64,000 nt of DNA from Enterobacter phage ZX14. Numbering within the stretch: position 1 is the first letter of the stretch; each line of letters starts with the position of its first letter. The DNA lies in sequence record PP236086.1. One strand, 5' to 3'. The notes beneath the pieces were generated by a model. The model searched no databases and was not told the origin of the DNA. It saw nothing but the letters and a program-made list of their open reading frames with translations. Shown here one piece after another: positions 3,904 to 51,807 of this stretch. The translations under genes and the position numbers were made by a program.

Positions 3904-3913
3904 AACGTTTACC

Positions 3914-4379: not shown

Positions 4380-4407
4380 ATTTCCTCCTTTATAAACAAG
4401 TACGGGT

Positions 4408-4437: not shown

Positions 4438-4439
4438 TG

Positions 4440-4673: not shown

Positions 4674-4682
4674 TTTATTTCC

Positions 4683-4913
4683 TTAACAAGAAGAAGGTTG
4701 CCAGATAGAGCCATCAGCTTCTACATGGAATTCGCGGCCAACTTCTTCGCCGTAGCAAGAAGAATTATTCCAGTCATCAAAACGCATACTACCATCATAG
4801 GTATTGAATTCAAAACCGAAAGAATCGGCAGAAGCCAGTTCGCTTACTTTGTTGAACAGAATGGCAAGTTCTTTAGCTGCTTGTTCGAGTTCAATATTAC
4901 CAGATATAGACAT
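4683..4913 (-). CDS. small hypothetical protein, family member C
   Basis: 76 aa ending IWQPSSC. Confidence 0.5.
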   Translation of the reverse strand: MSISGNIELEQAAKELAILFNKVSELASADSFGFEFNTYDGSMRFDDWNNSSCYGEEVGREFHVEADGSIWQPSSC

Positions 4914-4922
4914 AATGTTTCC

Positions 4923-5207
4923 TTAGCATTCCATAGAAGATGATACCCAACCACCTGATTCGAGGCTGGTATAATATGAGTGTTGGTTGACGGTGGCCCA
5001 ATTTGGCTTGCCTTGTTCGGTATAATGCTCAAGTTCCTTTTTCAAGAATCCAGGAGAATAATACGTTCCGCCCATACCATAAGCAGGGGCGATTTCAAAA
5101 CTCAGGTCGTATTTGTCAGCGACTTTCTTTGCTTGATTAATAGCTTCAGAAATGGCCGCTTCAGCAGCAGCCATCGCAAGTTCAGGTTTGTGTTTAGACA
5201 TTAGCAC
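4923..5207 (-). CDS. small hypothetical protein, family member D
   Basis: 94 aa ending GWVSSSMEC. Contains a TYYSPG motif. Confidence 0.5.
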   Translation of the reverse strand: MLMSKHKPELAMAAAEAAISEAINQAKKVADKYDLSFEIAPAYGMGGTYYSPGFLKKELEHYTEQGKPNWATVNQHSYYTSLESGGWVSSSMEC

Positions 5208-5518
5208 ATCTCACTTGAAGAAATCCAGGTACCTTCAACCAGATTACCGTTTTCATCAAGTTCGTAATCGTATTGACGGCATGCGTATTCAATATAGTTA
5301 TCTTCGGCATTAGTGCCTTTAGGATAATAGGTCTCACCATTGCCATAATCGCCACGGCTCATAGAAATACCATATTGGTCCATCAGTTGTTCTGCACGAG
5401 CTTCATCTACAGGTTCTAGAAGAGCTTCAATTGCTTTGCGAGCAGAGGCCGCATCGGTAATCAGAGGGATACGAGTTTCAACAACTTCAAAGGCCTGGTT
5501 TTTCAGTTTCTTACTCAT
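5201..5518 (-). CDS. small hypothetical protein, family member E
   Basis: 105 aa ending TWISSSEMC. Contains an ETYYPKG motif. Confidence 0.5.
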   Translation of the reverse strand: MSKKLKNQAFEVVETRIPLITDAASARKAIEALLEPVDEARAEQLMDQYGISMSRGDYGNGETYYPKGTNAEDNYIEYACRQYDYELDENGNLVEGTWISSSEMC

Positions 5519-5880
5519 TTTCTTCTCACATTTTTAATAAAAAGTTCAGTTGATTTACGCTCATTAACTAAATCATGAGCAGCTCTTTCTGCCATATATT
5601 CTTTGTTATGTTTCTTCCATGGAAGATATTCTTTAAAGAAATAACTTACACGTTCACTTTGATAGGTCAAATACCAAGATAATGGAAACCCACAAATCAA
5701 ATATTTTGTTGTTTCAACTACCCAAGGCGCAACTTTATCTTTCATGCCTTTATCAAAAATAAGCATATCGGCAAAACAAAAAGCAAGAGCTAATACAGCA
5801 GAAAGAAAAGCCGCTATTAAAAATGAACCAAACCAATCTAAGTTACGACGAAATGTAGGCTTCATTCTATAGTACATCAT
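5515..5880 (-). CDS. membrane protein
   Basis: TM segment FGSFLIAAFLSAVLALAFCF. Start is taken at the Met preceded by AAGGAG (5878-5880). Confidence 0.45.
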   Translation of the reverse strand: MMYYRMKPTFRRNLDWFGSFLIAAFLSAVLALAFCFADMLIFDKGMKDKVAPWVVETTKYLICGFPLSWYLTYQSERVSYFFKEYLPWKKHNKEYMAERAAHDLVNERKSTELFIKNVRRK

Positions 5881-6571
5881 AGGCTCCTTTACGGGCTTTA
5901 ATATTAGCACGACATTGGTCTACGAAATCTAAGACAATAATAGAACGGTCCTGATTTCGACCTTTAGCCTTATGGAAATATTCGTCGATTTTAGGGAACC
6001 AATATTCTTTCAAGGATTTAATCTTATCACTGGTATAAGAAAGCTTACCAATGACCGTATCACCCGTAGTAATAATAACACCGAACTTAGTTTTGTTGAA
6101 TTCAAGAGCAATGTAGTATGTATTATCACTACGATTATTAAAAGCAGAAACAGACTTTTTCAATGATTGCCAATTCCGCTCATCATTATTAAAGGCAAAA
6201 ATTGAATATTCTAACGAGTAGATATCAATGATTTTAAGCTGCCCGTGTCCATCTACTTCTTTAAAGAACTTAATGATGTTATTCATATCATTAAGAACAA
6301 ATGCTGGTGCCAACCCCGCTTTAAAATCATTAGAACCAATAGAAGACCTTGATGGAGCCCAGTCACTATTCGTTATTTTTGAACTAGGGTACTTTGCTGC
6401 AATTTTAATAATATCCATTGGTAAACGAGTATTAACAGCAAAACTCTGAATCATATCTCGTTGATTGTGTTTTAAATGACGAGTTACAGCAATCAATTCA
6501 TCCGTGTATTCAGCGCTATTGACACCTGATTTAGGCGAAATATCAGGCCCACAACCTTCGTAAAAACTCAT
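5867..6571 (-). CDS. hypothetical protein (234 aa)
   Basis: Long ORF with an SD (GAGGAAAATATT ATG). No family recognised. Confidence 0.5.
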   Translation of the reverse strand: MSFYEGCGPDISPKSGVNSAEYTDELIAVTRHLKHNQRDMIQSFAVNTRLPMDIIKIAAKYPSSKITNSDWAPSRSSIGSNDFKAGLAPAFVLNDMNNIIKFFKEVDGHGQLKIIDIYSLEYSIFAFNNDERNWQSLKKSVSAFNNRSDNTYYIALEFNKTKFGVIITTGDTVIGKLSYTSDKIKSLKEYWFPKIDEYFHKAKGRNQDRSIIVLDFVDQCRANIKARKGAYDVL

Positions 6572-6610
6572 AATATTTTCCTCAAGATGTTAATCTTAAT
6601 TATCCCAGTA

Positions 6611-6628
6611 AGAGGGCCGAAGCCCTCT
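6611..6628 (-). terminator. UUCG-tetraloop hairpin downstream of the PspA-like gene
   Basis: Minus strand reads AGAGGGC-UUCG-GCCCUCU. There is no long U-run, so it may be a stabiliser rather than a terminator. Confidence 0.4.
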
Positions 6629-6633
6629 TCATA

Positions 6634-7227
6634 TTATTTCAGACTTGCCAGATATTCTTCAACATCAGCTTCAGTCGTTACAGTGCCAGGTTCAGCAGTG
6701 TGGAAGGTGTCAACTTTCATCAGAGTATCATCGACGGCAACTTTGGCCAGTGCAGCGATTTCAGTTACATCTTCGGCAGTTGCAACACCAAGAGCAGCAG
6801 CGCTACGAGTTTCACGGATGAATTCGAGCTTAACAGCCAGGTCTTGACGAGCATCGTCCAGCTCAACTACTTTCTGTTCGATTTCTTGACGCATGCCTAC
6901 ATATTCGTCTGCTTTCTTAATCAAAGCTTCAGCAGTACGACGATACAGAAGACCAAGCTTAGCATGAGTGCCTACAGGCTGACCATTTGCCAGGAGACGC
7001 TTGATTTCTTTTTCTTTACTTTCGGCCAGAGTAGTTTTTTCTGCGGCCAGAGCACGGATGCGTTTTTCTTCGTTGATGGATTTCACATGGCTGGTACGCA
7101 GCATAGTGATTTTATCAATCAGAAGGTTAGCAGCTTCAGTGTACTGGTCTTCTACAGTAGTGTTACGAGCAACAAAAGAACCCAGTTTAGCACGGATGAA
7201 TTCAACCAGTTTTTTCAGAATAGCCAT
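6634..7227 (-). CDS. PspA/IM30-family (phage shock protein A-like) coiled-coil protein
   Basis: 197 aa. The N-terminus [28 protein letters not shown] parallels the PspA N-terminus ([25 protein letters not shown]). Coiled-coil heptads run throughout. An early promoter lies upstream and a UUCG hairpin downstream. Confidence 0.55.
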
Positions 7228-8918: not shown

Positions 8919-9336
8919 ACCCGCCCTAGATACCCGAAAGGGCTCCCATTTCTGAGAACCCTTTCGAATCGGCGCTGTACGTAGTCGCACCTAGAGGTAC
9001 CATTCGCCTTACGGTTTCATTTGCGATATCCACCGTCGTTCGTTTAAGTTGATTTGTCATAGGGCTCGAACCTACACGCTTAGGTCTGTCGCACCGGTTT
9101 CCGCCTTACTCACCTGGGTACCAACCAGGGTTTCAAACAAGCTATTCCAGTCGTGTCTACCAAATTTCACCACACAAATCATAAATTATACGGAACGCCG
9201 GGGCATGCACCCGGTTATAAAGCAGTTGACGCTACTCTATATTTTTAAGAGGCGAGCATCTCGACCATATCCGAACGTTTCGTCAAAAACGCTACTCGGC
9301 TTACGGCAAAGATGGGTCCTCGAACCGTTTGTTTAG

Positions 9337-9410
9337 AGGCGGGTGATGGACTCGAACCATCGCATATCGGGATATGAACCCGACCTTCTACCAACTGAAT
9401 GTAACCCGCA
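9337..9410 (-). tRNA. tRNA-Met (anticodon CAT), initiator-like
   Basis: Hand-folded cloverleaf: T-arm GATGG-TTCGAGT-CCATC and anticodon arm TCGGG-TTCATAT-CCCGA. The anticodon stem has three consecutive G-C pairs and the 1-72 position is unpaired, both initiator hallmarks. CCA is not encoded. Confidence 0.5.
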
Positions 9411-9674
9411 TTTGTCCGGGTCCAGAGAGTACTAATAAGTAGGCTGTAGTAGAACCCATTGACTAGAATCAATGAGGGAACATGAACCTTTAGCCCCGGC
9501 ATTATCTTATGGACTTCAAACTCTTCTCTCTAGACTGCCTCGTATTATTGCGCCCATCTTGCTGTGGCATTAGACCATGAAGCATTACCGAAATCGCCTG
9601 ATTACGTTAATGTCTGGGTGCTATCCAGGGAACAGAGCTTGGACGGCTTTCCATATCGTCATATGGATTTCTGT

Positions 9675-9750
9675 TGGGGTGACCTGTGGGACTTGAACCC
9701 ACGACTACAAGAATCACAATCTTGAATTCTACCAACTGAATTAAGGCCAC
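9675..9750 (-). tRNA. tRNA-His (anticodon GTG)
   Basis: 76-nt cloverleaf: acceptor GTGGCCT/AGGTCAC, D-arm ATTC-AGTTGGTA-GAAT, anticodon loop TTGTGAT, T-arm GTGGG-TTCAAGT-CCCAC. CCA is encoded. Confidence 0.6.
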
Positions 9751-9785
9751 ATCAATATTCACTCGTAAATGAATATTAATTTGGC

Positions 9786-9856
9786 TAGGGTATCAGGACT
9801 CGAACCTGAGCATAATGGGATCAAAACCCACTGCCTTACCAACTTGGCTATACCCT
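9786..9856 (-). tRNA. tRNA-Gln (anticodon TTG)
   Basis: Acceptor AGGGTAT/ATACCCT, anticodon loop TTTTGAT, T-arm CAGG-TTCGAGT-CCTG. Confidence 0.55.
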
Positions 9857-9863
9857 ATTTAAC

Positions 9864-9947
9864 TGGCGGTTAGTGCAGGTATCGATACCTGCCTTGTCCT
9901 AAGACACGGATTAACAGTCCGTCGCTTCCCCTCTCAGCCAACTAACC
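9864..9947 (-). tRNA. atypical tRNA with Asn anticodon GTT but a long (about 13 nt) variable arm and an 8-nt T-loop
   Basis: Perfect 7-bp acceptor GGTTAGT/ACTAACC with G73 and encoded CCA. The anticodon arm ACGGA-CTGTTAA-TCCGT matches E. coli tRNA-Asn. The D-arm is Ser-like (TGGCTGAGAGGGGAAGC), the variable arm is GTCTTAGGACAAG, and the T-arm GCAGG-TATCGATA-CCTGC is palindromic. Confidence 0.45.
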
Positions 9948-9953
9948 GGAATT

Positions 9954-10032
9954 TGGTGGTTGTGCCTGGAATCGAACCAGGGTTCCTAAATTTAACTAAA
10001 GGGCGCTTATGCCTGCTTGGCGCGACACAACC
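9954..10032 (-). tRNA. tRNA-like gene, anticodon probably TAA (Leu) but atypical
   Basis: Acceptor GGTTGTG/CACAACC with A73 and CCA, and T-arm CCTGG-TTCGATT-CCAGG. The D-loop is long (13 nt). The anticodon stem CTTTA/TTAGG has a T-T mismatch and the loop is GTTAAAT. Confidence 0.4.
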
Positions 10033-10038
10033 TGAATT

Positions 10039-10114
10039 TGGTGGGTCTGGATGGACTCGAACCATCGACACCCGCATTAAAAGTGCGGTGCTCTACCAAC
10101 TAAGCTACAAACCC
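10039..10114 (-). tRNA. tRNA-Lys (anticodon TTT)
   Basis: 76-nt cloverleaf: acceptor GGGTTTG/CAGACCC, D-arm GCTT-AGTTGGTA-GAGC, anticodon arm CCGCA-CTTTTAA-TGCGG, T-arm GATGG-TTCGAGT-CCATC. CCA is encoded. Confidence 0.65.
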
Positions 10115-10196
10115 ATATTACTGTTCTTTAGTCGAGCCGACTTGTCCGTATTCTTTCAACGGTGAGCTGATAGCTGTAACAGTAATACTCTAAATT

Positions 10197-10284
10197 TGGT
10201 GGGGAGTGATGGAGTCGAACCACCCGAGTCGCAATGACAACAGATTTACAGTCTGCACCGCTACCTCTACGGAATTAACTCCCC
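10197..10284 (-). tRNA. tRNA-Tyr (anticodon GTA), class II with long variable arm
   Basis: Acceptor GGGGAGT/ACTCCCC with A73 and CCA, anticodon loop CTGTAAA, long variable arm, T-loop TTCGACT. Confidence 0.55.
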
Positions 10285-10297
10285 GTGATACTTTTAT

Positions 10298-10540
10298 TTA
10301 TTCAGTATATCTCTTGAACTGTAAAGCAAAATCTTCATCAACCTTAGTCAAGAAGTGTCCTGCCTTAAATCGTTTAGAGCTACCTTCAACTTCTACACCG
10401 TAACCGTTCTTACCAAGGACTCGACCAACTCGCATTTCACCAGGGTCACCCATTGAATTACAACGAACACCATATAGAACAAAATCATTTTCGAACACCG
10501 GAGTTTGTTTCCGATCTTTAATTAATTCTATCATATTCAC
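10298..10540 (-). CDS. hypothetical protein (80 aa) embedded in the tRNA cluster
   Basis: ORF abutting the NADAR gene (ATGA overlap). Confidence 0.45.
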   Translation of the reverse strand: MNMIELIKDRKQTPVFENDFVLYGVRCNSMGDPGEMRVGRVLGKNGYGVEVEGSSKRFKAGHFLTKVDEDFALQFKRYTE

Positions 10541-10541
10541 C

Positions 10542-10997
10542 TTAAAGCATATTACGTTTTAAGTTTTCACGAACTCGATAAAGGTTTGAACAGAATTCCT
10601 GTTCGGTTAGAACGGTTTCATTCTTTTTCGACTTGCCCATCGAGTGAGTTAATGTAGAGTTCTGTGTAGCCAGAAGTGCTCTCTTGAACCCTTCATTACG
10701 TCCTAATTCATTATATGCACGTTCAATAAGAAGTCTGTAGGCGTCACTCTGACGTTGCATAGGCACACCTTTCCAGTACAGGGTTTGAGTACGCCACCAC
10801 TTCTTTTTCTTACCTTTGAACTTAGCTGCTTTACCAACTAGAGTACAAACATGTTCTTGCATTTCGACTGAACTAAATTTCAGTGATTGCAAAAATCCTT
10901 CCATCGAAGCACATTCTACACCATCAATTGTAAAAGCATGAGGTGCAAAATTACTTAATGCAGATGAAGGATAACCTGAACCTGAACCAATATCCAT
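10542..10997 (-). CDS. NADAR / YbiA-like (DUF1768) domain protein
   Basis: 151 aa with SNFAPHAF...GVECASMEGFLQSLKF...KFKGKKKK...YWKGV...RLLIERAYNELG...LLAT, matching the NADAR signature pattern (FSNF..H.F.....Y.S.E...Q..KF). Confidence 0.5.
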   Translation of the reverse strand: MDIGSGSGYPSSALSNFAPHAFTIDGVECASMEGFLQSLKFSSVEMQEHVCTLVGKAAKFKGKKKKWWRTQTLYWKGVPMQRQSDAYRLLIERAYNELGRNEGFKRALLATQNSTLTHSMGKSKKNETVLTEQEFCSNLYRVRENLKRNML

Positions 10998-11209
10998 TAT
11001 TCATTTTCCTTTTCAAGAAGGAACATATACATATCGTCATGGTCTTGCATAACGTTTTCAAATTGTGATTCGTATTCAGCCAATGGTGCAGAACCAAGCC
11101 AGTTAGCACATTGAATACGTAAGTCGCCATTAGCGCCTTGATAAATCAAAGCTTCAGAATATCCACCTGAAGCCCATTCGATAATTGCATGTCCTAAACG
11201 ATATTTCAT
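10997..11209 (-). CDS. hypothetical protein (71 aa)
   Basis: Start is taken at MKYRLGH with a GAGGAAAATATA SD. The first Met in the ORF track (11254) would overlap the tRNA-Arg gene. Confidence 0.45.
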   Translation of the reverse strand: MKYRLGHAIIEWASGGYSEALIYQGANGDLRIQCANWLGSAPLAEYESQFENVMQDHDDMYMFLLEKENE

Positions 11210-11227
11210 TATATTTTCCTCAGTGTC

Positions 11228-11304
11228 TGGTGTCCCCTGATGGATTCGAACCATCGACCCACAGCTTAGAAGGCTGTTGCTCTATCCGGCTGAGCTAAGA
11301 GGAC
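11228..11304 (-). tRNA. tRNA-Arg (anticodon TCT)
   Basis: 77-nt cloverleaf: acceptor GTCCTCT/AGGGGAC, D-arm GCTC-AGCCGGATA-GAGC, anticodon arm ACAGC-CTTCTAA-GCTGT, T-arm GATGG-TTCGAAT-CCATC. CCA is encoded. T4 carries an Arg(UCU) tRNA at the equivalent position. Confidence 0.7.
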
Positions 11305-11308
11305 GAAA

Positions 11309-11385
11309 TGGTGGCCCTTCTGGGAGTCTAACCCAGCTTACACCGGTTATGAGCCGGGTACTTTCACGCGACAGTACAAAGGGCC
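11309..11385 (-). tRNA. tRNA with CAT anticodon (Ile2-lysidine type or elongator Met)
   Basis: Perfect acceptor GGCCCTT/AAGGGCC with CCA, D-arm TACT/AGTA, anticodon loop CTCATAA. The T-arm is CTGGG-TTAGACT-CCCAG, i.e. an unusual A56. Confidence 0.5.
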
Positions 11386-11394
11386 TGAATAATT

Positions 11395-11479
11395 TGGTGC
11401 ACCGAGTGGGACTTGAACCCACAATCCATAAGGCGTATCATTTTAAGTGATATATGTATACCAATTCCATCATCGGTGC
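11395..11479 (-). tRNA. tRNA-Leu (anticodon TAA), class II
   Basis: Acceptor GCACCGA/TCGGTGC with A73 and CCA, anticodon arm TATCA-CTTAAAA-TGATA, long variable arm, T-arm GTGGG-TTCAAGT-CCCAC. T4 tRNA-Leu likewise carries UAA. Confidence 0.6.
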
Positions 11480-17692: not shown

Positions 17693-19431
17693 TTAATATC
17701 AGTGATTCAGTTTCATGGTTCGTCGGTGTTGTTGAAGACCGAATGGACCCTTTAGAACAAGGTCGTGTACGCGTACGTGTGTGGGGTCTTCACCCTTATG
17801 AGAAAACTCAAGGTCCTGTAAAGGGGATTAAAACTGAAGACCTTCCATGGATGTCTGTACTCCAGCCAACATCATCAGCATCTGTTTCTGGTATTCAGCA
17901 AGCTATTACTGGAATGGTTCCGGGCACGCATGTATATGGTCATTTCTTAGACAAGTGGAAACTTAATGGACTTGTGTTAGGAACTTATTCCTCTAACTCA
18001 ATGGTTAAAGCTAATCCTAATGAAGGTTTTGCTGACCCAACAGGACAATATCCACTTTATCTTGGCAATGACACGAACCCATTAAACCGTGGTGGTATTC
18101 CTGGTGATGATTCTACAGCGAATATTATTCAGGACGCTAACCTTGATGTTGGTATTAACCCAGATGGAAAACCTCTGTCCGAAATACCAGAAGACAATAA
18201 CCCTGATTATACTATCCAAGCAATGGTTCAACGTGATGAAGGTCTTCGTCTTAAAATATATTGGGATGTGCGTGGATATACCGTAGGTATAGGACATTTC
18301 ATTGGGGAATTTGCCCAAGGTGATATGGCTGGTGCTAATAAAGCATTAAGTGAACAAATAGGAAGAAAGGTAACTGGAAATCCTGGTTCTATCTCAATGG
18401 ATGAGGCCAGTGAATTATTTAAAAAAGATTTAGAAAATGTCCAACGCGATATTAAAATAAATGGAACTATTGGGCCTGTTTATGCTAGGATGAACCGTTC
18501 TCGTCAGATGGCACTCGAGAATATGGCTTTCCAATTAGGAATAGGTGGTCTGGCAAAATTCACTAATATGTTGGCGGCTATGTTTATTGGTGATTGGGTC
18601 ACCGCGTATAAAGAAGCTAGAGACTCTCTTTGGTTTAATCAGACTAAAGGTCGAGCTTCTCGTGTGTCCATGATTATTCTTACTGGTAATATGGAATCAT
18701 ATGGTATTCCGGTTAACCCTAATCAGAATCCAAACGGAAGAATGGCTAGTTTTGCAATGCTTGCTGCGACAGCAGCGCCAGCAAGTGACCCGGCGGACCC
18801 ATGGGTCCCAGAAGACACTAGAATATTGTTTAAAGAACCTCCTTCAAGCTATAAAGGACAATATCCTTATGTCCAGACTATGGCTACCGAAGGTGGGCAT
18901 ATTCAAGAATTTGACAATACTCCCGGACAAGAACGTTATCGCTTAATTCATCCTACTGGAAGCTATGATGAAACTGCTCCTGATGGCCGTCGTACTATTA
19001 AATCAGTAGCTGATGCTTATTATATGACCCAAGCCGATTGTTCTACAATGATTGGTGGTGATAATAAAGTCAACGTTGGTGGGAATGAAGTCAAATATAA
19101 TATGGCTGATGTTAGGCGTCAAACTGATGGTAATGAAACTATTTTCATCCGTGGTAATGACACTAAAACAGTAGAAGGCGATGGGACTCTTCATGTTAAA
19201 GGCAATATTAAAATTATTGTTGAAGGTGATGCAGATATCGAAGTTCAAGGTAATGCAAAATCTCATGTTGTCGGAAACCATGAGTACACCGTCGATGGTA
19301 ACTTAACTTGGAAAATTGCCGGGACAGTAGATATTGATGTTGGTGGTTCTTGGACTGAGAAATTTGCTTCTATGAACTCTGTCGCATCGGGTCAGTATAC
19401 TATTGATGGTAGCAGGATTGATATTGGCTAA
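17689..19431 (+). CDS. 5: gp5 baseplate hub / tail-associated lysozyme
   Basis: 580 aa. Contains a T4-lysozyme-like domain (LRLKIYWDVRGYTVGIGH) and a C-terminal beta-helix repeat region (VEGDGTLHVKGNIKIIVEGDADIEVQGNAKSHVVGN). Confidence 0.85.
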   Translation: MINISDSVSWFVGVVEDRMDPLEQGRVRVRVWGLHPYEKTQGPVKGIKTEDLPWMSVLQPTSSASVSGIQQAITGMVPGTHVYGHFLDKWKLNGLVLGTYSSNSMVKANPNEGFADPTGQYPLYLGNDTNPLNRGGIPGDDSTANIIQDANLDVGINPDGKPLSEIPEDNNPDYTIQAMVQRDEGLRLKIYWDVRGYTVGIGHFIGEFAQGDMAGANKALSEQIGRKVTGNPGSISMDEASELFKKDLENVQRDIKINGTIGPVYARMNRSRQMALENMAFQLGIGGLAKFTNMLAAMFIGDWVTAYKEARDSLWFNQTKGRASRVSMIILTGNMESYGIPVNPNQNPNGRMASFAMLAATAAPASDPADPWVPEDTRILFKEPPSSYKGQYPYVQTMATEGGHIQEFDNTPGQERYRLIHPTGSYDETAPDGRRTIKSVADAYYMTQADCSTMIGGDNKVNVGGNEVKYNMADVRRQTDGNETIFIRGNDTKTVEGDGTLHVKGNIKIIVEGDADIEVQGNAKSHVVGNHEYTVDGNLTWKIAGTVDIDVGGSWTEKFASMNSVASGQYTIDGSRIDIG

Positions 19432-19943
19432 TGGCTGAAATACTTCCTATGAGCACAGACCTTTCCGAAGATATGGAAGGGTCTTCTATCGACGTCACGT
19501 TCACTGCTCAATTTTTAGAAGGCGAGACGTTAGAGTCAATAAATATAATAGATTATGAAGCCACACCAGGCGTTAATGTTGTAGGCAACCAATTATTTGG
19601 TACTTATCGAGATGTTTTTGCACTTGGTGGTGATGCTTTAAAATATAGAACAATTCAAGGTCAACTTCTTTCTGCTGATTCTTGGGACTCACTTCCTGGT
19701 TCACTAGATGCACAACTTTATTACTTTAAAGCCCCTAAGGCGCTCACTAAGACATTTAATTATGTTGTAGAGTTAATCTATTGGTACCAAGCCCCTAGTA
19801 CAGGAGGGAGCGCCCCTGACGACCCTGTCGTTACTCCCCCAGCAGAGAAAAGAACTATCAGAAAAACTTATTTCAAAACTATCGTAGGTAATTGGTCTAG
19901 ATGGGCAAATCAATTACGTTCGTACGTTTATGCGAGGCCATAA
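19431..19943 (+). CDS. gp5.1-like hypothetical protein
   Basis: 170 aa ORF in the position of T4 5.1. Confidence 0.45.
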
Positions 19944-19945
19944 AA

Positions 19946-20239
19946 ATGCCAGCTTTAAGTTTTAATAATTGTATGACAACAGGCCACCAAGCGTGGCCAC
20001 CAACAGAAGTTTTAGCATCTCAAGGCAAGGTATTTACTGGTGGTATAGCGGTTGTTATAGCCGGGGATAAAATAGTACCTCATACTGAAATTAAAAAGCC
20101 TTATGAGACACACGGTGGTTCTGTTGAACCAAGGACGAGTAAAGTCTTTGTTACCGGTAAGAAAGCAGCCGCAATGGCAGACCCTATTTCTTGTGGTGAT
20201 ACCATCGCACAGGGTTCACCAAAAGTATTCATTCACTAG
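19946..20239 (+). CDS. 5.4: gp5.4-like PAAR-repeat spike tip protein
   Basis: 98 aa starting [15 protein letters not shown]...; small and Gly-rich. T4 gp5.4 is 97 aa. Confidence 0.55.
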
Positions 20240-42168: not shown

Positions 42169-42597
42169 ATGTATCTTCTCCCTGAAAGCTATGAATTAGT
42201 AACGGAAAATGTTGAAAACTTAATTCCAGAAGCGCAGGGTCGTTTTGATAGTCTTTCTAAAGCACTTGATAAAGCTGATATAAATAAACTTGTAGAGAAC
42301 ATGTTTGAGAGTGGTGATGTCGATTTAGCCATCGCTCTCGGTTCTATTAACGAAGAAATGGCTTTAAACGAATTTATCGTTAAACACGTTTCTTCTCGTG
42401 GTGATATTACGCGTACTAAAGACATTAAAACTCGTCAGCGTAATGCATACCAAACTACAGGTCTTTCTAAAGCTAAGCGTCGTCAAATTGCTCGTAAAGC
42501 TACTAAGACCAAGCGCTCTAACCCATCAACTCAGGTTCGTGCTGAGCGTAAGCGTAAAAAAGCTCGTGCGAAACGTAAAGCATTTGGATTAAGCTAA
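42169..42597 (+). CDS. 68: gp68 prohead core protein
   Basis: 142 aa (T4 141 aa) with a basic C-terminus. Confidence 0.6.
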
Positions 42598-43232
42598 TGA
42601 ATGAACCCCAACTCTTAATCGAACATTGGGGTCAACCAGGTGAAATTATCGATGGGGTTCCTATGTTGGAATCCTACGATGGAAAAGATACAGGATTAGC
42701 TCCTGGTCTATACATCGAAGGTATTTTCATGCAGGCGGAGAAAGTAAACCGAAATAAACGTCTTTATCCAAAGAAAATTTTGGAAAAGGCCGTAGCCAAC
42801 TATATGGCAGAGCAGGTTGTTACTAAACAAGCTCTCGGCGAATTAAACCATCCACCTCGTGCGAACGTTGACCCTATGCAAGCAGCCATAATTATCGAAG
42901 ATATGTGGTGGAAAGGAAACGACGTATACGGTCGTGCAAGAATTATTGAAGGTGACCACGGTCCTGGTGATAAACTAGCGGCAAATATCAGAGCTGGATG
43001 GATTCCTGGAGTGTCTAGTAGAGGCCTGGGTTCTTTGACAGAAACCAATAAAGGTTATAAGCTGGTAAATGAAGGATATCGCCTGACGGTTGGCGTAGAC
43101 GCTGTATGGGGTCCTAGCGCTCCGGATGCATATGTCAAACCAAAACAAATTAATGAAAGTGCGGAAAATACTTCCGATACTAGTGCCGATGACGCCTACC
43201 TGGCTCTCGCAGAGGCCATGAAAGCGTTATAA
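42597..43232 (+). CDS. 21: gp21 prohead core scaffold protease
   Basis: 211 aa (T4 212 aa), in the conserved position. Confidence 0.85.
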   Translation: MNEPQLLIEHWGQPGEIIDGVPMLESYDGKDTGLAPGLYIEGIFMQAEKVNRNKRLYPKKILEKAVANYMAEQVVTKQALGELNHPPRANVDPMQAAIIIEDMWWKGNDVYGRARIIEGDHGPGDKLAANIRAGWIPGVSSRGLGSLTETNKGYKLVNEGYRLTVGVDAVWGPSAPDAYVKPKQINESAENTSDTSADDAYLALAEAMKAL

Positions 43233-43262: not shown

Positions 43263-44090
43263 ATGCTTAAAGAACAACTGATGACCGAAGCGCAGAATAT
43301 TGACGTTTCCGTTGCTCTTGACAGTATTTTCGAATCAGTTAATATTTCTCCAGAAGCTCGTGAGACTTTTGGCACTGTATTCGAAGCAACCGTCAAGCAG
43401 CAGGCTATTAAACTGGCCGAATCCCACATTGAATCCATCGCTGAAAAAGCGGAAGAAAAAGTTGCTAAGGCTAAAGAAGAAGCTGAAGAGAAAGCAGAGA
43501 AAGATATTCAAGAATCTGTTGCTCGCTTCTTAGACCACCTGGGTAAAGAATGGCTGGCAGAAAATAAACTGGCTGTTGACCGTGGTATTAAAGCCGATCT
43601 GTTTGAATCCGTAATGGGTGGCATGAAAGAATTGTTCGTAGAACACAACGTTGTAATTCCAGAAGAAGCTGTTGATGTTGTAGCTGAAATGGAAGAAGAA
43701 CTGGCCGAACAGAAACAAGAAACTGCTCGTCTGTTCGAAGAAGTAACTAAGCGTGATGCATATATCAATTATGTACAGCGCGAAACCGTTCTGGGTGAAG
43801 CAACTCGTGAGTTGACCGAATCTCAAAAAGAAAAAGTTAGTTCTCTGGTCGAAGGTATGGAATACTCAGATTCATTCCCTGCTAAGCTGGACGCTATTGT
43901 AAATATGGTAAAAGGTTCTATTACCGAATCCGGTTCTAATGAAAAACCGATTACCGAAGGTGCTATAAATACACCTGAAGATGATGCTGCAGCTCTGAAC
44001 TTTGTTTCAGAACCGGTCGTCGAACAGGCTCAAAAGCCTGCAATGTCTTTAGCTGACATGGCTGCTCTTGCAGCATCACGTATTTCTTAA
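43263..44090 (+). CDS. 22: gp22 prohead core scaffold protein
   Basis: 275 aa, acidic and coiled-coil (T4 269 aa). Confidence 0.75.
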   Translation: MLKEQLMTEAQNIDVSVALDSIFESVNISPEARETFGTVFEATVKQQAIKLAESHIESIAEKAEEKVAKAKEEAEEKAEKDIQESVARFLDHLGKEWLAENKLAVDRGIKADLFESVMGGMKELFVEHNVVIPEEAVDVVAEMEEELAEQKQETARLFEEVTKRDAYINYVQRETVLGEATRELTESQKEKVSSLVEGMEYSDSFPAKLDAIVNMVKGSITESGSNEKPITEGAINTPEDDAAALNFVSEPVVEQAQKPAMSLADMAALAASRIS

Positions 44091-44110
44091 TTTAACAAGG
44101 TTATTATCAC

Positions 44111-45673
44111 ATGAAAAAGAATGAACTCGTCCAGAAATGGCAGAATCTGTTGGAAAACGAAGCACTGCCGGAAATCGTAGGCGCTTCTAAGCAAGCTATT
44201 ATTGCTAAAATCTTCGAAAACCAGGAAATGGACATCATGAATTCTCCGGAATATCGTGATGAGAAAATCGCTGAAGCATTCGGTTCCTTCCTGACTGAAG
44301 CAGAAATCGGTGGTGACCATGGTTATGACGCTACTAACATCGCTTCTGGCCAGACCTCTGGTGCAGTAACCCAGATCGGTCCAGCAGTAATGGGTATGGT
44401 TCGTCGTGCTATTCCTCATCTGATTGCTTTCGACATCTGTGGTGTTCAGCCTCTGAATAACCCAACTGGCCAGGTATTCGCCCTGCGTGCCGTTTACGGT
44501 AAAGACCCAGTTGCTCCAGGTGCTAAAGAAGCATTCCACCCAATGTACGCTCCAGACGCAATGTTCTCTGGTCAGGGTGCAGCAGGTGCTAACTTCCCAG
44601 CTCTGGCTGCAGGTACTGTAACCGAAGTTGGTAAGATTTATCGTCATGATTTCGTACAGACCGGTACTGCTTATTTCCAGGCTACCGAAGTTGTTACTGT
44701 TGATGCAGCTGCTACCGATGCCGCTAAACTTGATGCAGAAGTTCTGAAGCAGGTTGAAGCTGGTGTGTTCGCTGAAATCGCAGAAGCAATGGCTACTTCT
44801 ATCGCCGAACTGCAGGAAGGCTTCAATGGTTCTAGCGATAACCCATGGAACGAAATGGGCTTCCGTATCGATAAGCAAGTTATCGAAGCTAAATCTCGTC
44901 AGCTGAAAGCTTCTTACTCTATTGAACTGGCACAGGACCTGCGCGCTGTTCACGGTATGGACGCTGATGCCGAACTGAGTGGTATTCTGGCTACTGAAAT
45001 CATGCTGGAAATTAACCGTGAAGTAATCGACTGGATTAACTATTCCGCACAGGTTGGTAAGTCTGGCTTTACTAACACCGTTGGTGCTAAAGCTGGTGTG
45101 TTTGACTTCCAGGACCCTATCGACATCCGTGGTGCTCGTTGGGCTGGTGAAAGCTTCAAAGCTCTGCTGTTCCAGATTGACAAAGAAGCAGCTGAAATCG
45201 CTCGTCAGACCGGTCGTGGTGCAGGTAACTTCATCATCGCTTCTCGTAACGTAGTTAACGTACTGGCTGCAGTTGATACCGGTATTTCCTACGCTGCACA
45301 AGGTCTGGGTCAAGGTTTCAACGTTGACACTACCAAAGCCGTGTTCGCCGGTGTTCTGGGTGGTAAATACCGTGTGTATATCGACCAGTACGCTCCACAG
45401 GACTACTTCACCATTGGTTATAAAGGTGCTAACGAAATGGATGCTGGTATTTACTACGCGCCATACGTTGCTCTGACCCCACTGCGTGGTTCCGATCCGA
45501 AGAACTTCCAGCCAGTAATGGGCTTCAAAACTCGTTACGGTATTGGTATTAACCCGTTCGCTGATAGTGCGGCTCAACAGCCTAAAGGCCGTATCGTTAA
45601 TGGTATGCCTGATATCACTAACAGCCTGGGTAAAAACGGTTACTTCCGTCGCGTGTTCGTTAAAGGTATCTAA
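44111..45673 (+). CDS. 23: gp23 major capsid protein
   Basis: 520 aa (T4 521 aa). Starts MKKNELVQKWQNLLENEALPEIVGASKQAIIAKIFENQE. Highly expressed-gene codon usage. Confidence 0.95.
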   Translation: MKKNELVQKWQNLLENEALPEIVGASKQAIIAKIFENQEMDIMNSPEYRDEKIAEAFGSFLTEAEIGGDHGYDATNIASGQTSGAVTQIGPAVMGMVRRAIPHLIAFDICGVQPLNNPTGQVFALRAVYGKDPVAPGAKEAFHPMYAPDAMFSGQGAAGANFPALAAGTVTEVGKIYRHDFVQTGTAYFQATEVVTVDAAATDAAKLDAEVLKQVEAGVFAEIAEAMATSIAELQEGFNGSSDNPWNEMGFRIDKQVIEAKSRQLKASYSIELAQDLRAVHGMDADAELSGILATEIMLEINREVIDWINYSAQVGKSGFTNTVGAKAGVFDFQDPIDIRGARWAGESFKALLFQIDKEAAEIARQTGRGAGNFIIASRNVVNVLAAVDTGISYAAQGLGQGFNVDTTKAVFAGVLGGKYRVYIDQYAPQDYFTIGYKGANEMDAGIYYAPYVALTPLRGSDPKNFQPVMGFKTRYGIGINPFADSAAQQPKGRIVNGMPDITNSLGKNGYFRRVFVKGI

Positions 45674-45690
45674 TCCTTTTAAAAAATTAT

Positions 45691-45720
45691 GGGAGACTTC
45701 GGTCTCCCATTCTTGTTTCT
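45691..45720 (+). terminator. intrinsic terminator after gene 23
   Basis: GGGAGAC-UUCG-GUCUCCC followed by a U-rich tract. Confidence 0.65.
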
Positions 45721-45727: not shown

Positions 45728-45735
45728 TATAAATA
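45728..45735 (+). promoter_or_regulatory. late promoter TATAAATA (gene 24)
   Basis: Exact consensus after the gp23 terminator. Confidence 0.6.
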
Positions 45736-45763
45736 ATATTATTATCCACTAAGGAAAAGCGCA

Positions 45764-47044
45764 ATGGCTAAAATCAACGAACTTCTGCGCGAATCAACTA
45801 CAACGAGCAGCATCCAATATGGTCGTCCGAATCTCGTTGCTTTGACACGCGCTACTACCAAATTAATTTACAGCGATATCATCGCGGAACAACGTACTAC
45901 ACAGCCAGTTGCGGCATTGTACGGTGTCAAATATCTTACCCCAGATAATGAATTCAGCTTCGCAACCGGTGCTACTTATGGTGGTCAAGTAGGTTCTAAA
46001 GATAGAGAATCTATTCCTAAGCTGACTTCTAAAGCCCAAAGCATTGCACAGGGCGATTATTTCGTATACGAGAACATTGTTTATAAGGCACTCGAAGCGG
46101 ACCCCCTGGCGGCGACTAACGCAACAGAGCTGGCTGATGCTCTTAAAGAAGCTTTAATCCTTTTAAAATGCCGTTTAGTTCCGGATGCTGCTAGTACTGC
46201 TAAATTCGAAGATAAAGATGTAGAAATCAGCAATGCTGTATTTGAAGTGAATAAATGGAATGCTCCTGTTAAATCACGTAAGCTTAAAACTTCTCTGACT
46301 GTAGAACTTGCACAGGATATGGAAGCCAATGGCTTCGATGCTCCAGCATTCTTAGAAGATTTACTTGCTACTGTCATGGCCGATGAAATTAACAAAGATG
46401 TTCTTCAGTCACTGATTACTGTTTCTAAGCGTTATAAAGTCCAAGGACTTTGTGAGAATGGTATTATTGACCTGTCTTATGATAACTCACCAGAAGCCTC
46501 AAGAAAATTATATGAAGTCGTTTGTGAAATGAACTCTGAAATTCAGAGAACTACTTCATATTCCGGAACGTTTGTTGTTGCCAGTTCTCGTGTGGCTGCA
46601 TTACTTGCAGGTTCCGGTTGGTTAAAACATCGCCCTGAAGATGATGAATGGCTTCCATCTACAGCATATGGCTATCTGACTAATGGACTGCCTGTTTTCT
46701 GTGATGTTAACAGTCCATTAGATTATGTTACGGTTGGTGTTAAAGAAAGTTATGGTGGTAATGAAATCGTAGGTTCTATTTTCTATGCTCCATATACTGA
46801 AGGTCTCGATTTAGACTCTAAAGAACATGTTGGTGCATTTAAAGTTATTGTGGACCCAGATTCTTTACAGCCGTCTATTGCACTGATGGTGCGTTATGCA
46901 TTATCTGCTAACCCATATACCGTAGCCAAAGACGAAAAAGAAGCTCGTATTATTGATGCTACCGATATGGATAAAATGGCTGGCCAGTCTAACATGTCAT
47001 ATCTGCTTGGTGTTAAACTTCCACCTATTATCTACGAGGCATAA
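45764..47044 (+). CDS. 24: gp24 head vertex protein, copy A
   Basis: 426 aa (T4 427 aa), a gp23 paralog fold. A late promoter and a terminator lie upstream. Confidence 0.85.
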   Translation: MAKINELLRESTTTSSIQYGRPNLVALTRATTKLIYSDIIAEQRTTQPVAALYGVKYLTPDNEFSFATGATYGGQVGSKDRESIPKLTSKAQSIAQGDYFVYENIVYKALEADPLAATNATELADALKEALILLKCRLVPDAASTAKFEDKDVEISNAVFEVNKWNAPVKSRKLKTSLTVELAQDMEANGFDAPAFLEDLLATVMADEINKDVLQSLITVSKRYKVQGLCENGIIDLSYDNSPEASRKLYEVVCEMNSEIQRTTSYSGTFVVASSRVAALLAGSGWLKHRPEDDEWLPSTAYGYLTNGLPVFCDVNSPLDYVTVGVKESYGGNEIVGSIFYAPYTEGLDLDSKEHVGAFKVIVDPDSLQPSIALMVRYALSANPYTVAKDEKEARIIDATDMDKMAGQSNMSYLLGVKLPPIIYEA

Positions 47045-47045
47045 T

Positions 47046-48326
47046 ATGGCCAAGATTAATGATTTAATTTACGAATCAACTTTGACCCAGGCGAACAGCT
47101 TGGGTCGTCCTAGCTTGTTGTCTTATACTAAAGCTACAAACAAAAGAATTTTTAAAGCTCTTGTGGCAGAACAACCTACGACACAACCAGTAGCGGCCCT
47201 TTATGGTATCAGAGTTCTGAATCCAGAAGATGAAATGACTTATCTGGGTGGTGCTACTTTTGCCGGTCAATTTGGAATGGGCGAACGTGCTGCTGTCCCT
47301 GAATTAACCGCACTATCAGGTTATTCTAAAGGTGACTTGTTCAAATTTGAATCTGTTATTTTCAAATGCCTTGAAGATAATCCATTTGCCGGAACGACCG
47401 AAACAGATTTAGGCGAAGGCGTATCTGAAGCTATTGCAGCCGGGCATATTCGTATGATGTCTGATGCAGCTGTTACTTCTAAATTTGAAAGTAATACTCC
47501 TGAAATTTCTGAAGCAGGTTTCAGAATTGACAAATGGCAGACTAATGTACGTTCACGTAAGCTTAAAACTTCTTTGACAGTAGAACTTGCGCAAGATTTA
47601 GAAGCTAATGGTTTTAATGCCCCTGATTTCATTGACAATATTTTAGCAATCCAAATGGCAGAAGAAATTAACAAAGATGTTCTTCAGTCACTGATTACTG
47701 TTTCTAGTCGATTTAAGGTCCATGGCGTGTCTTCTAAAGGCGTGTTGGATTTAACTGATGCTCTTTATGATAATGCCCAGGATAGAGCTCGTGCACTTTA
47801 TTACTATATGTGTGAAATGAACTCTGCTGTGCAACGTAATACTTCATTTGCCGGGACTTATGCTGTTGCTAGTTCTCGTTGTGCTGCTATTTTAGCTGCA
47901 TCCGGTTGGGTAGAAAAGAAAGACGATACGGACCCTCTGGCGTATGGTGTGCTTAAAAATGGTCTTCCATTATATGCAGACGTGAATAGTCCTTGTGATT
48001 ATGTTATCGTTGGTGTTAATGAAGATTTAGGCGAAGGACAGACGGTAGCTTCGTTGTATTATGCGCCATATATTGAGGGTGCGGATGGTATTCAAGAAGA
48101 AAGTGATACTCCAGTTGGTTCACACAAAGTTATCGTGGACCCAGATTCTTTACAACCTGTAGTTTCCTTGTTAAGTCGTTATGCATTATCTGCAAACCCT
48201 TATACAGTGGCTAAAGATGAAAAAGAAGCTCGTATCATTGATGGTGGGGATATGGACAAGATGGCAGGTCAAAGCCAATTGAGTTCTTATCTTGGTGTTA
48301 AATTACCACCTTTAGAAAAAGAATAA
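47046..48326 (+). CDS. 24: gp24 head vertex protein, copy B (tandem paralog)
   Basis: 426 aa starting 1 nt after copy A. The two copies align along their whole length (MAKINDLIYEST... versus MAKINELLREST...; both end ...YLGVKLPP). Confidence 0.85.
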   Translation: MAKINDLIYESTLTQANSLGRPSLLSYTKATNKRIFKALVAEQPTTQPVAALYGIRVLNPEDEMTYLGGATFAGQFGMGERAAVPELTALSGYSKGDLFKFESVIFKCLEDNPFAGTTETDLGEGVSEAIAAGHIRMMSDAAVTSKFESNTPEISEAGFRIDKWQTNVRSRKLKTSLTVELAQDLEANGFNAPDFIDNILAIQMAEEINKDVLQSLITVSSRFKVHGVSSKGVLDLTDALYDNAQDRARALYYYMCEMNSAVQRNTSFAGTYAVASSRCAAILAASGWVEKKDDTDPLAYGVLKNGLPLYADVNSPCDYVIVGVNEDLGEGQTVASLYYAPYIEGADGIQEESDTPVGSHKVIVDPDSLQPVVSLLSRYALSANPYTVAKDEKEARIIDGGDMDKMAGQSQLSSYLGVKLPPLEKE

Positions 48327-48348
48327 GGGAGCCAATGGCTCCCTTTTT
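48320..48348. terminator. bidirectional terminator between gene 24B and rnlB
   Basis: GGGAGCC-AAU-GGCUCCC with TTTTT downstream and AAAAA upstream. Confidence 0.65.
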
Positions 48349-50112: not shown

Positions 50113-50301
50113 TCAATTCTTGGCATTAAGTTTCTTAAAGGCAGAAGACACCCCACCTATGATACACACCAAAGAAATTAATGCTATAAAGACACATAAG
50201 AACGTCCCTATAAGAATCGGCTCGGCTATAGCCATCAATGAAAAGACGAAGACTATAGATGATACGGCTAAAAAGAAAGCATCTTTCACAACTTCTTTCA
50301 T
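50113..50301 (-). CDS. small membrane protein (24.3-position)
   Basis: 62 aa with two hydrophobic segments. Confidence 0.4.
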   Translation of the reverse strand: MKEVVKDAFFLAVSSIVFVFSLMAIAEPILIGTFLCVFIALISLVCIIGGVSSAFKKLNAKN

Positions 50302-50331: not shown

Positions 50332-51807
50332 TTAGTAAATATAATCATATATTATTCCATTTTCAAGAGCCGAGCGGTGAACAATCCTACCGTTTCTAGA
50401 TTCTTGCACATCAACTTCTGGGTAGTCCGTAATCATTTTAGACAGAACTGCCAAATGACAATGATAAGGACTATCAAGCCAAGAGGCAGTTTTCCAATCT
50501 TTACCTTCTGAAGTAAGCTTCTGGATAGCATCCATAACCCACCAACCAGCCCAGATATAAGCAGATGCTCTCCACGGTAACGGGTGTACATAAATTAATT
50601 CACATGCCATATCAGGTATATTTACGGTATATGAAGCTTCAAAAGACCTTTCACTATACCCAGGAGCAGAAATGGTTACCTTAAGATGATAAGTATTTTC
50701 GCCAGGTCTAATCGATTTTGGTTCTAAATTTACACTAGGATACTTAGTACCTTGATCTGTCCACTCATATGCAACTGTGGCATTAGATAAATCAATACCG
50801 ATTATTTTAGGAGATAATACAAATTTCTCTCCTTCTGGGACTGGAAGACTTTGATGACTTGCTTCTATGCTAAGCGTTACATCAGGAATAACTGTTATCG
50901 TTGCGTTGTTTTGACTGATGATAGGAGGATATGTTTCCGAGCCAATAAAAATAATTTCAGCTTTAGCCGATACTTTATATTGCTTCATAGTACTTTGACT
51001 AAATGTATAGTTAGGTCCTACGGCTCCTTCTACTAAAACATCATCAACATACCAGCTATAAACTATATTACTAATAGGGGATTCGACACGAGATAAATCA
51101 AGAATATACACTAGCGTTACGGGCTCATCAATAAGAACGGTTTTATTGCCTGGTTCTAAATTAGACCCAACAGTGTTTGAAAGAGGCGTAGTTACAACGG
51201 TTACATCCTTTGTTGCAAAAACACGAGTTACCATATAATTAGGATGGGTAAGTTTGGCCTCTACTGTATAAATCCTAGTCCCGACTTTATCACCTCTAGC
51301 AGTGAATAAAGAATTAGTTTCATTAGCAATAGGCTGCAAAACATTGTCTACTTTTTCACTCCAAGTGTATTTTAAAGTTAAACTAGGGTCGGACAGCAGT
51401 GGATGGGTAACAGATATAGATGCTTTGAGATCGGTATTAGAAAGATGTTCTATTGTTACTGTGGAGGGGCCTTCTATTTTTATACTAGGTGAGCCCATGT
51501 ATCCTAAACCCGAAGTCAATGTGTAATATGCTTCAAATTGTTCATCTTCATAGCCAGGCTTAGAAACAGTAGCTCTTAAAATTACTTGCTCTGTACCAGG
51601 TCTAATCCAAGTGGGTTCTAAAGTAGGCGTATTATAGAATTGATCTCTAAAAGACCAGTTATAATCACTTATTACCGCATCATCAAGTCCTGTTACTTGG
51701 GCGCTAAGGATAAATGTTTCATCCTCAAAAGGGCGTGGGAAAGAATCATAGTTTTGGACTATTTCTAATGTCGCCGGGTTCGGAAGATCTGCCATTTTAT
51801 TCTCCAT
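50332..51807 (-). CDS. hoc: Hoc-like outer capsid protein with tandem Ig-like domains
   Basis: 491 aa. Shows repetitive beta-rich Ig-like modules about 90 aa each, followed by a distinct C-terminal domain. Located between rnlB and the inh position as in T4. Confidence 0.5.
   Translation of the reverse strand: MENKMADLPNPATLEIVQNYDSFPRPFEDETFILSAQVTGLDDAVISDYNWSFRDQFYNTPTLEPTWIRPGTEQVILRATVSKPGYEDEQFEAYYTLTSGLGYMGSPSIKIEGPSTVTIEHLSNTDLKASISVTHPLLSDPSLTLKYTWSEKVDNVLQPIANETNSLFTARGDKVGTRIYTVEAKLTHPNYMVTRVFATKDVTVVTTPLSNTVGSNLEPGNKTVLIDEPVTLVYILDLSRVESPISNIVYSWYVDDVLVEGAVGPNYTFSQSTMKQYKVSAKAEIIFIGSETYPPIISQNNATITVIPDVTLSIEASHQSLPVPEGEKFVLSPKIIGIDLSNATVAYEWTDQGTKYPSVNLEPKSIRPGENTYHLKVTISAPGYSERSFEASYTVNIPDMACELIYVHPLPWRASAYIWAGWWVMDAIQKLTSEGKDWKTASWLDSPYHCHLAVLSKMITDYPEVDVQESRNGRIVHRSALENGIIYDYIY

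Follow-up and report, generated by a model that had tools for sequence, protein, structure and literature searches.

In a stretch of 64,000 nucleotides (nt) from the genome of Enterobacter phage ZX14 (PP236086.1; called the window below, always at its full length), the interval 45764-48326 carries two adjacent genes, 24a and 24b, whose products are related to gp24, the capsid vertex protein of phage T4. With a probability of roughly 0.7, two functional vertex (penton) proteins of the gp24 family are encoded here by a conserved late operon of two genes, the second of which represents an old paralog family. The pair is already known at the level of annotation and is not novel as a sequence feature. 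The two genes are as follows, and the families to which they belong are called A and B:

45764..47044, + strand: 24a, 426 amino acids (aa) plus stop, ortholog of T4 gp24, the canonical capsid vertex protein
47046..48326, + strand: 24b, 426 aa plus stop, diverged paralogous vertex protein of the JS98 gp24b or "capsid vertex protein II" family

Two full-length genes of the gp24 family

The similarity between the two products is far above chance: BLASTP aligns them with 237 of 428 positions identical (55%), 74% positives, and E = 5e-173. The Pfam family PF07068 (Gp23) matches residues 18-417 of 24a (E = 2.6e-98) and residues 19-418 of 24b (E = 1.1e-97), and PHROG 138 is matched by both; NCBIfam gave no model for either protein. 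24b aligns over residues 1-423 with the T4 gp24 chain 1YUE (E = 1e-151, 509 bits), as against about 5e-14 and 55 bits for the gp23 chains. Both window proteins match T4 gp24 (PDB 1YUE, 5VF3, 7VS5) from end to end (426 versus 427 aa) and share with it an N-terminal decapeptide ending in (L/I)-x-E. Unlike the window, T4 has a single gene 24, whose product fills all 11 non-portal vertices.

The junction of the two genes reads GAGGCA TAA T ATG GCC, with 1 nt between stop and start. In the program-made list of open reading frames (ORFs), 24b is prolonged upstream to a TTG at 46953, but its start is set here at the ATG at 47046, because all orthologs begin at the methionine of MAKIN or MxKI and a GAGG Shine-Dalgarno sequence lies at 47036-47039. 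Inspection of the ORFs found no internal stop, truncation, or frameshift in either gene. The original prediction had described two copies of full length and clear divergence, with both ends intact and the second coupled to the first at a distance of 1 nt (TAA-T-ATG, as in its TAATATGG). It holds in these respects: the copies are of 426 aa each, they match PF07068 from end to end, and no disabling mutation is found in either. For both, the ratio of nonsynonymous to synonymous substitution rates (dN/dS) is below 0.1.

Indeed, Nei-Gojobori dN/dS values among orthologs range from 0.03 to 0.095 for A and from 0.024 to 0.094 for B; for 24b itself the value is 0.054 against CIP9 and 0.094 against JS98. 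In comparisons of A with B, synonymous sites have reached saturation (dS 1.4-1.8). On these substitution patterns, 24a and 24b are both intact, functional genes under strong purifying selection.

The N-termini of the two proteins also follow that of T4 gp24, which loses its first 10 residues to the gp21 prohead protease (PMC9958956). 24a begins with MAKINELLRE|S, exactly as in T4 gp24, and 24b with MAKINDLIYE|S. The protease-site motif (L/I)-x-E|S accordingly takes the form L-R-E|S in 24a and I-Y-E|S in 24b, and I-x-E|S is present in every B ortholog. Residues 1-10 are thus a predicted propeptide in both proteins.

Distribution and previous annotation

Whether the pair had already been described in this phage group was a question that the original prediction could not answer, and the answer is clearly yes. 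Annotation of the pair in GenBank goes back to the JS98 record (EF469154), which names 24a and 24b; the VR7 record has 24(1) and 24(2), and the VR5, VR25, VR26, and CGG4-1 records have "capsid vertex protein I/II". The window interval is 94.5-96.9% identical at the nt level to those of vB_EclM_Q7622, Kc305, CIP9, Entb_45, IME523, and MY742, phages of Enterobacter and Kosakonia whose records list both genes as coding for vertex or head proteins; Q7622, Kc305, CIP9, and IME523 carry the same cassette at 95-97% nt identity. The whole interval also aligns with JS98, VR7, and VR5/VR25/VR26 at 75-77% nt identity. JS98, VR7, VR5/VR25/CGG4-1, S16, Melville, and Marfa share the cassette, with A copies 75-86% and B copies 78-82% identical to those of the window, and the likeness extends to gene order, a junction of -1 to +1 nt, and the layout of promoter and terminator. 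What sets the window apart from the other annotated pairs is ortholog divergence only, together with a 1-nt spacer in place of an abutting or overlapping junction and a lineage-specific conversion tract of 43 nt (see below).

A tblastn search with 24b found gp24-like genes at 1536 places in 1418 phage records, which leaves about 118 records with two. B-type genes were found in 113 GenBank phage records at E <= 1e-180, all at least 77.9% identical to 24b, and their carriers belong to at least five genera: Dhakavirus, Gaprivervirus, Gelderlandvirus (S16, STML-198, Melville), Marfavirus, and the Enterobacter/Kosakonia Kanagawavirus group. A-type genes are present in 91 records at 80% identity or more and, at about 76%, in Marfavirus (22 Klebsiella records), a total that equals the B-type count. 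Of 35 loci in IMG/VR, 17 have two copies, one of these being Cronus (see below), and each of the 17 has its B-like gene immediately behind a gp24 gene; the contigs are for the most part isolate genomes that are also in GenBank, with just four metagenomic ones. A B-type gene on its own was seen in no phage among the GenBank B-type records or the IMG/VR loci. No study of the function, stoichiometry, or structure of 24a and 24b was found in the open-access literature, a search that did not cover the JS98 and VR7 genome papers, and the PDB holds T4 gp24 as its only entry of this kind, with no solved structure of the B type.

Age and origin of the two families

24a is 70% identical to T4 gp24 and 83-99% identical to other A-type copies (75-86% in the annotated pairs named above). 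24b shares 57-59% of its residues with T4 gp24 and 78-82% with the B copies of Dhakavirus, Gaprivervirus, Gelderlandvirus, Marfavirus, and the Kanagawavirus group. Judged from these distances, the A/B split is ancient and older than the genera that carry the pair, because A and B are 55-58% identical in every two-copy genome while B orthologs keep 78-82% identity across genera and 66% identity to the second copy of Cronus. The original prediction therefore does not hold insofar as it implied a duplication event peculiar to ZX14.

The trees agree with this order of events; they are neighbor-joining, distance-based trees in which the long stem of B is open to long-branch artefacts. The A copies of all genera form one clade with 100% bootstrap support, nested with the gp24s of T4, Mosigvirus, Karamvirus, PM2, and PSD9 (90%). 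A second clade, likewise with 100% support, unites the B copies and lies outside the canonical group that contains A: 24b groups with JS98 24b, VR7 24(2), and the second copies of Melville, Marfa, and Cronus, and not with any first copy. In a gp23-rooted tree that includes Cronus, both copies lie inside the gp24 clade and B is still separate, as sister to all canonical gp24s of Tevenvirinae and Acinetobacter phages, branching after those of Krischvirus, Slopekvirus, and Biquartavirus. A comparison at 19 diagnostic sites, made to see whether the B-specific residues are ancestral (gp23-like), gave a mixed picture: gp23 agrees with B at 5 sites and with the canonical residue at 5, and distant gp24s agree with the canonical residue at 11 and with B at 5. 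Most B states are therefore derived.

If the pair had arisen by a recent tandem duplication within this lineage, or if the second copy were decaying or an artefact of assembly, the tandem arrangement and the equal gene lengths would be explained, and nothing else. The protein identity of 55% and the saturated dS of 1.4 speak against such an origin, as do B orthologs in 113 records with intact ORFs and dN/dS of about 0.05 and the presence of the pair in independent metagenome contigs. This explanation retains hardly any probability, and a recent duplication or a pseudogene is ruled out by the trees, the distribution over 113 records, and dN/dS.

A case with a different upstream partner is found in the Erwinia phages Cronus (locus 1719-4284) and IT22. 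They also have adjacent gp24 genes joined by TGA-T-ATG, and their second copy is 66-67% identical to B and carries the B signature of the N-terminal arm (see below). Unlike in the window, however, the first copy is canonical but does not belong to the A clade, and it is 63-68% identical to A, T4, and Jiaodavirus gp24s. The B family would thus be older or more mobile than the A clade, because its partner in Cronus lies outside that clade.

The origin of the pair was either a basal duplication followed by many losses or a lateral spread of the B gene or of the whole cassette. It is quite possible, if somewhat short of an even chance, that B is a xenolog, acquired by recombination from another T4-like lineage and inserted beside the resident gene 24, and not a duplicate made in place. 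B is 62-65% identical to the single gp24 of Jiaodavirus and so nearer to it than to its own neighbor A; the gp23 tree does not unite the two-copy phages (Marfa falls with Karamvirus, and Melville stands apart); the Cronus partner of B is not an A-type gp24; and the Shigella phage PSD9 (see below) shows that the gene 24 locus is exchanged by homologous recombination. However, the grouping with Jiaodavirus has a bootstrap value of only 63% and vanishes once Cronus and gp23 are added, neighbor-joining with so long a B stem is prone to artefact, and no candidate donor with B alone was seen in the GenBank B-type records or in IMG/VR. The position of B as sister to all canonical Tevenvirinae and Acinetobacter-phage gp24s fits an ancient duplication with many subsequent losses.

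Family-specific changes in B

Conservation was scored over the 203 alignment columns that are conserved in at least eight of nine single-copy gp24s. The A clade has replaced 2 of them and keeps 201, while the B clade has replaced 26 and keeps 177, so that A is taken as the canonical gene and B as the derived one. Most B replacements are conservative (Y/F, L/I, K/R, E/Q, G/A), and 24b further differs from T4 gp24 and the single-copy gp24s by three small indels. In T4 numbering, the indels lie near residues 238, 296-299, and 353, and side chains that tell the two copies apart are L27/Y27, L34/R34, Y57/V57, and T68/G68.

The changes are not spread evenly. Over T4 residues 11-70, A copies are 88% identical among themselves and B copies 84%, A is 74% identical to the single-copy gp24s, and B is only 51-52% identical to either group; in the A-domain region the corresponding values are 83%, 87%, 68%, and 53-55%. 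The spine-helix and C-terminal regions of B are 65-72% identical to A, and residues of about 71-150 are variable in all groups. B has an N-terminal signature, LLSYT.ATNKRIFKALV...RVLNP..MTY.GGATFAG, which reads RPSLLSYTKATNKRIFKALVAEQPTTQPVAALYGIRVLNPEDEMTYLGGATFAG in the window 24b and is also present in the second copy of Cronus. An AlphaFold2 model of 24b, built from a three-sequence alignment (B, A, and gp23), has a mean predicted local distance difference test score (pLDDT) of 37 and a predicted template modeling score (pTM) of 0.32 and is unusable for domain mapping; its sole part of moderate confidence, residues of about 71-150, is consistent with the I domain of 60 residues known from T4.

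The B changes would therefore be family-conserved and not the result of random drift, with a concentration in the regions of the N-terminal arm/E-loop linker and the A domain. In T4, expansion brings the N-terminal regions of gp23* and gp24* to the outer surface, and they form arms that bind neighboring subunits, and the I domain and linkers make contacts within and between capsomers (PMC9958956).

It has to be considered whether B is part of the mature vertex at all. Attachment of gp24 at the prohead vertices of T4 is thought to trigger activation of the protease (PMC9958956), and a paralog might specialize in such an assembly role, that is, in seeding or triggering the activation of gp21 protease, or might occupy another minor position in the shell; the 26 replacements at otherwise conserved positions would suit this idea. 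B nevertheless keeps the whole gp24 architecture over residues 1-423 with small indels only, and it also keeps 177 of the 203 conserved positions and the similarity to A in the spine helix and C-terminal region, features that a shell subunit requires and that go beyond the needs of an assembly trigger. We consider this role improbable.

Gene conversion between the copies

The two copies have exchanged short stretches of sequence. The tract and its partner in the window are:

46385..46427, + strand: conversion tract in 24a, 43 nt identical to 24b 47664-47706; codons EINKDVLQSLITVS
47664..47706, + strand: conversion partner in 24b, the likely donor, identical in CIP9 24b

The tract is a run of 14 identical codons, and its permutation p value is about 0.001 given the codon identity at other positions with the same residue in both copies. 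In Melville, an independent tract lies at the same site (41 nt, a run of 13 codons, p of about 5e-5), and no comparable run of identical codons was found in JS98 or WG01. Within the tract, window A equals window B and CIP9 B, while CIP9 A differs at three sites, which points to a recent B-to-A conversion in the window lineage. Furthermore, in a 13-sequence codon alignment of A and B, the choice between E and D at codon 397 follows the genome and not the paralog; this residue is the E or D of DE/DD in the motif AKDEKEAR/AKDDKEAR and corresponds to Glu394 of T4 gp24.

Outside the conversion tracts, A and B stay about 60% identical at the nt level. That short conversion occurs and the rest of the two genes stays diverged argues that homogenization of A and B is selected against.

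Probable expression as one late unit

The genes lie in the standard T4 head module, in the order gp21, gp22, gp23, 24a, 24b, followed by the convergent rnlB on the opposite strand. The position after gene 23 and before rnlB, with a late promoter TATAAATA at about -35, is like that of gene 24 in T4. The signals around the pair are:

45689..45710, + strand: terminator of the gene 23 transcript, just upstream of the 24a/24b unit; stem-loop of 9 pairs (5 GC) followed by the T-run TCTTGTTT
45728..45735, + strand: T4-type late promoter TATAAATA, 29 nt before the start codon of 24a and the only one serving both genes
45751..45755, + strand: Shine-Dalgarno sequence AAGGA of 24a, read from the sequence
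47036..47039, + strand: Shine-Dalgarno sequence GAGG of 24b, within the last codons of 24a (tac GAG Gca = Y-E-A)
48325..48345, both strands: bidirectional stem-loop terminator AAGGGAGCC-AAT-GGCTCCCTT, 9 pairs (6 GC), right after the stop of 24b and common to the convergent rnlB

The late-promoter box occurs at 15 sites in the window against 6.3 expected, a number that 0 of 100 shuffled sequences reached, and the sites (e.g., 42279, 43228, 43964, 45728, and 49363) are mostly just upstream of head and tail genes. The same box is found at -33 to -36 before gene 24 in T4, JS98, VR7, WG01, Melville, Marfa, and CIP9. Inside 24a, no such box was found in the window or in JS98, VR7, WG01, Melville, Marfa, and CIP9, and 24b, which has no promoter of its own, relies on that of 24a. 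A sigma-70 promoter scan gave counts no higher than in shuffled sequence; such promoters are not relevant to T4 late genes.

The layout of promoter, junction, and terminator is alike in seven genomes of five genera (window, CIP9, JS98, VR7, WG01, Melville, and Marfa). The distance between stop and start is +1 in the window and CIP9, 0 in JS98 and VR7, -1 in WG01, Melville, and Marfa, and again +1 in Cronus. At the position of the 24b Shine-Dalgarno sequence, (A/T)GAGGC is kept in CIP9, JS98, VR7, WG01, and Melville. The C-terminus of 24a, ...IIYEA (window 47030-47044), is specific to the A clade, and T4 gp24 ends in ...IIIDE. This suggests that the C-terminal coding sequence of 24a is constrained by the downstream gene, with codons that double as its Shine-Dalgarno sequence. 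The codon adaptation index calculated against gp23, used as a proxy for abundance, is 0.45 for 24a and 0.39 for 24b; both values are within the spread of other head genes and are uninformative.

Phages with a single gene 24

Close relatives of two-copy phages may have one gene only. PSD9, a Shigella phage of the same species as WG01, is a natural recombinant: its flanks are 97% and 95% identical to WG01 at the nt level, gp22 is 100% and gp23 98.8% identical, and, from codon ~59 of 24a through the whole of 24b, the pair has given way to one gp24 gene of the PM2/PEi20 type, whose product is 67.5% identical to WG01 24a and 54.8% to 24b (5128-6408 in PSD9 versus 4218-6781 in WG01, in coordinates of the compared loci). 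The Edwardsiella phage PEi20, the type of Kanagawavirus, likewise has a single, PM2-like gene 24 at locus 18676-19956, and since the closest relatives of the window belong to the same genus, the cassette is polymorphic within it. As far as these genomes indicate, one generalist gp24 can serve a lattice that elsewhere uses A and B.

The situation resembles the bypass-24 mutants of T4, in which the specialized copy is dispensable (PMC9958956; PMC10580926), and PSD9 is the equivalent for 24b. The bypass-24 positions in gp23 (V99, A295, N381, and N384) are wild type in all two-copy phages. A role of B in compensating for missing decoration proteins was considered and rejected, since soc and hoc are both present in JS98 and the window carries a Hoc-like gene as well.

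Other features of the window

The gp21 homolog of the head module and further ORFs of the window are:

42597-43232: gp21 protease homolog, in the head module
44087-45577, - strand: antisense ORF of 496 aa with a TTG start, spanning nearly all of gene 23
50113-50301, - strand: strongly hydrophobic ORF of 62 aa, between the DUF2774 (24.3-like) gene and the Hoc-like gene
50332-51807, - strand: Hoc-like ORF of 491 aa at the hoc position

The antisense ORF over gene 23 is most likely a by-product of codon bias in this highly expressed gene and not a real gene. The Hoc-like ORF has no Pfam match but a Hoc-like PHROG match, and its C-terminal part has the ESRNG capsid-binding motif. In CIP9 there is no gene at the hoc position, and the 24.3-like gene is directly followed by inh; from this comparison, Hoc seems to be present or absent among near-identical phages. 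The 62-aa ORF has no family match and does not appear in the CIP9 annotation of the region. Seven tRNA genes (Met, His, Gln, Lys, Arg, Met, and Leu) lie in a cluster on the - strand at 9336-11479, as is typical of T4-like genomes.

Possible roles of two vertex proteins

The suggestion of the original prediction, two kinds of vertex penton or one copy turned to another use, is plausible, and the evidence for it here is indirect. If the interval is a late operon for two vertex proteins, the products of 24a and 24b would be made late in infection in comparable amounts, and both would be built into the prohead shell, be trimmed of 10 N-terminal residues, and assemble as pentamers at the non-portal vertices. 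A prolate head has 11 such vertices, which are geometrically non-equivalent. A and B might then form separate homopentamers, each fitted to a different vertex environment of the prolate head, apical or shoulder, rather than being redundant. This is a tentative reading, which is favored over mixed pentons because the B-family changes lie in predicted contact regions, the divergence is kept despite conversion, and the vertices are non-equivalent. That one paralog would occupy the apical vertex or the distal cap and the other the shoulder vertices beside the elongated midsection is more doubtful still. Such a division of labor would be optional, as a single generalist gp24 can replace the pair in PSD9 and does the whole task in T4.

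A precedent is the duplication of gp23 that gave rise to gp24, in which an HK97-fold shell protein was duplicated and one copy was tuned to a position in the lattice (PMC9958956). The likeness has its limits: gp23 and gp24 are about 20% identical and occupy proven hexamer and pentamer positions, while A and B are 55% identical and their vertex positions are inferred.

Several points weigh against the reading of two vertex proteins with different places in the shell. No direct evidence was found for either protein in the virion, for cleavage of 24b, or for its location, and neither virion proteomics nor a structure of any two-copy phage was found in the open-access literature or the PDB. PSD9 and PEi20 show that B is not indispensable in principle, which fits redundancy as well as specialization. 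No column of gp23 separates two-copy from single-copy phages, and the lattice thus shows no sign of adaptation to a second penton type. Within each clade the I-domain region already varies (63-67%), so that its A/B divergence is uninformative; the domain assignments, such as that of residues 11-70 to the N-arm/E-loop linker, are drawn by analogy from the HK97 fold order and the T4 review and not from the model of 24b.

Some of these points are equally expected if the pentons are interchangeable or mixed, with random homopentamers or mixed pentamers at any vertex, and if the pair is kept for robustness, either as a wider tolerance of pH, temperature, and proteases or as an escape from a host factor that recognizes the vertex. 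In T4, how well the capsid withstands low pH, 37 C, and digestive proteases depends in large part on gp24 (PMC10580926), and a second variant could widen that tolerance. In PSD9 one gp24 is enough alongside a nearly unchanged gp23, and a single gp24 is found in PEi20 as well; no gp23 residue covaries with the presence of B; and co-transcription and coupled translation suggest similar amounts of the two proteins, which fits a mixture better than a 10:1 split. On the other hand, full redundancy should not keep two copies at dN/dS below 0.1 across at least six genera, nor a B-specific signature of the N-terminal arm as far back as Cronus, and repeated conversion should homogenize redundant copies, whereas only tracts of about 40 nt have been homogenized. 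Interchangeable pentons are only slightly less probable than separate homopentamers, and neither reaches an even chance.

The question is why over 100 T4-like phages keep two vertex proteins where T4 needs one. The system is a tractable one, as culturable coliphages and Salmonella phages carry the pair (JS98, VR7, and S16), PSD9 provides a natural replacement, and T4 heads are available at high resolution. It bears on how non-equivalent vertices are specified, on how capsid stability is tuned, and on the specialization of shell paralogs, as in the derivation of gp24 from gp23. If position-specific homopentamers do exist, these phages would have the first tailed-phage capsid shown to have position-specific pentons, and they would offer a way into the question of how the vertices of a prolate shell are distinguished as it assembles.

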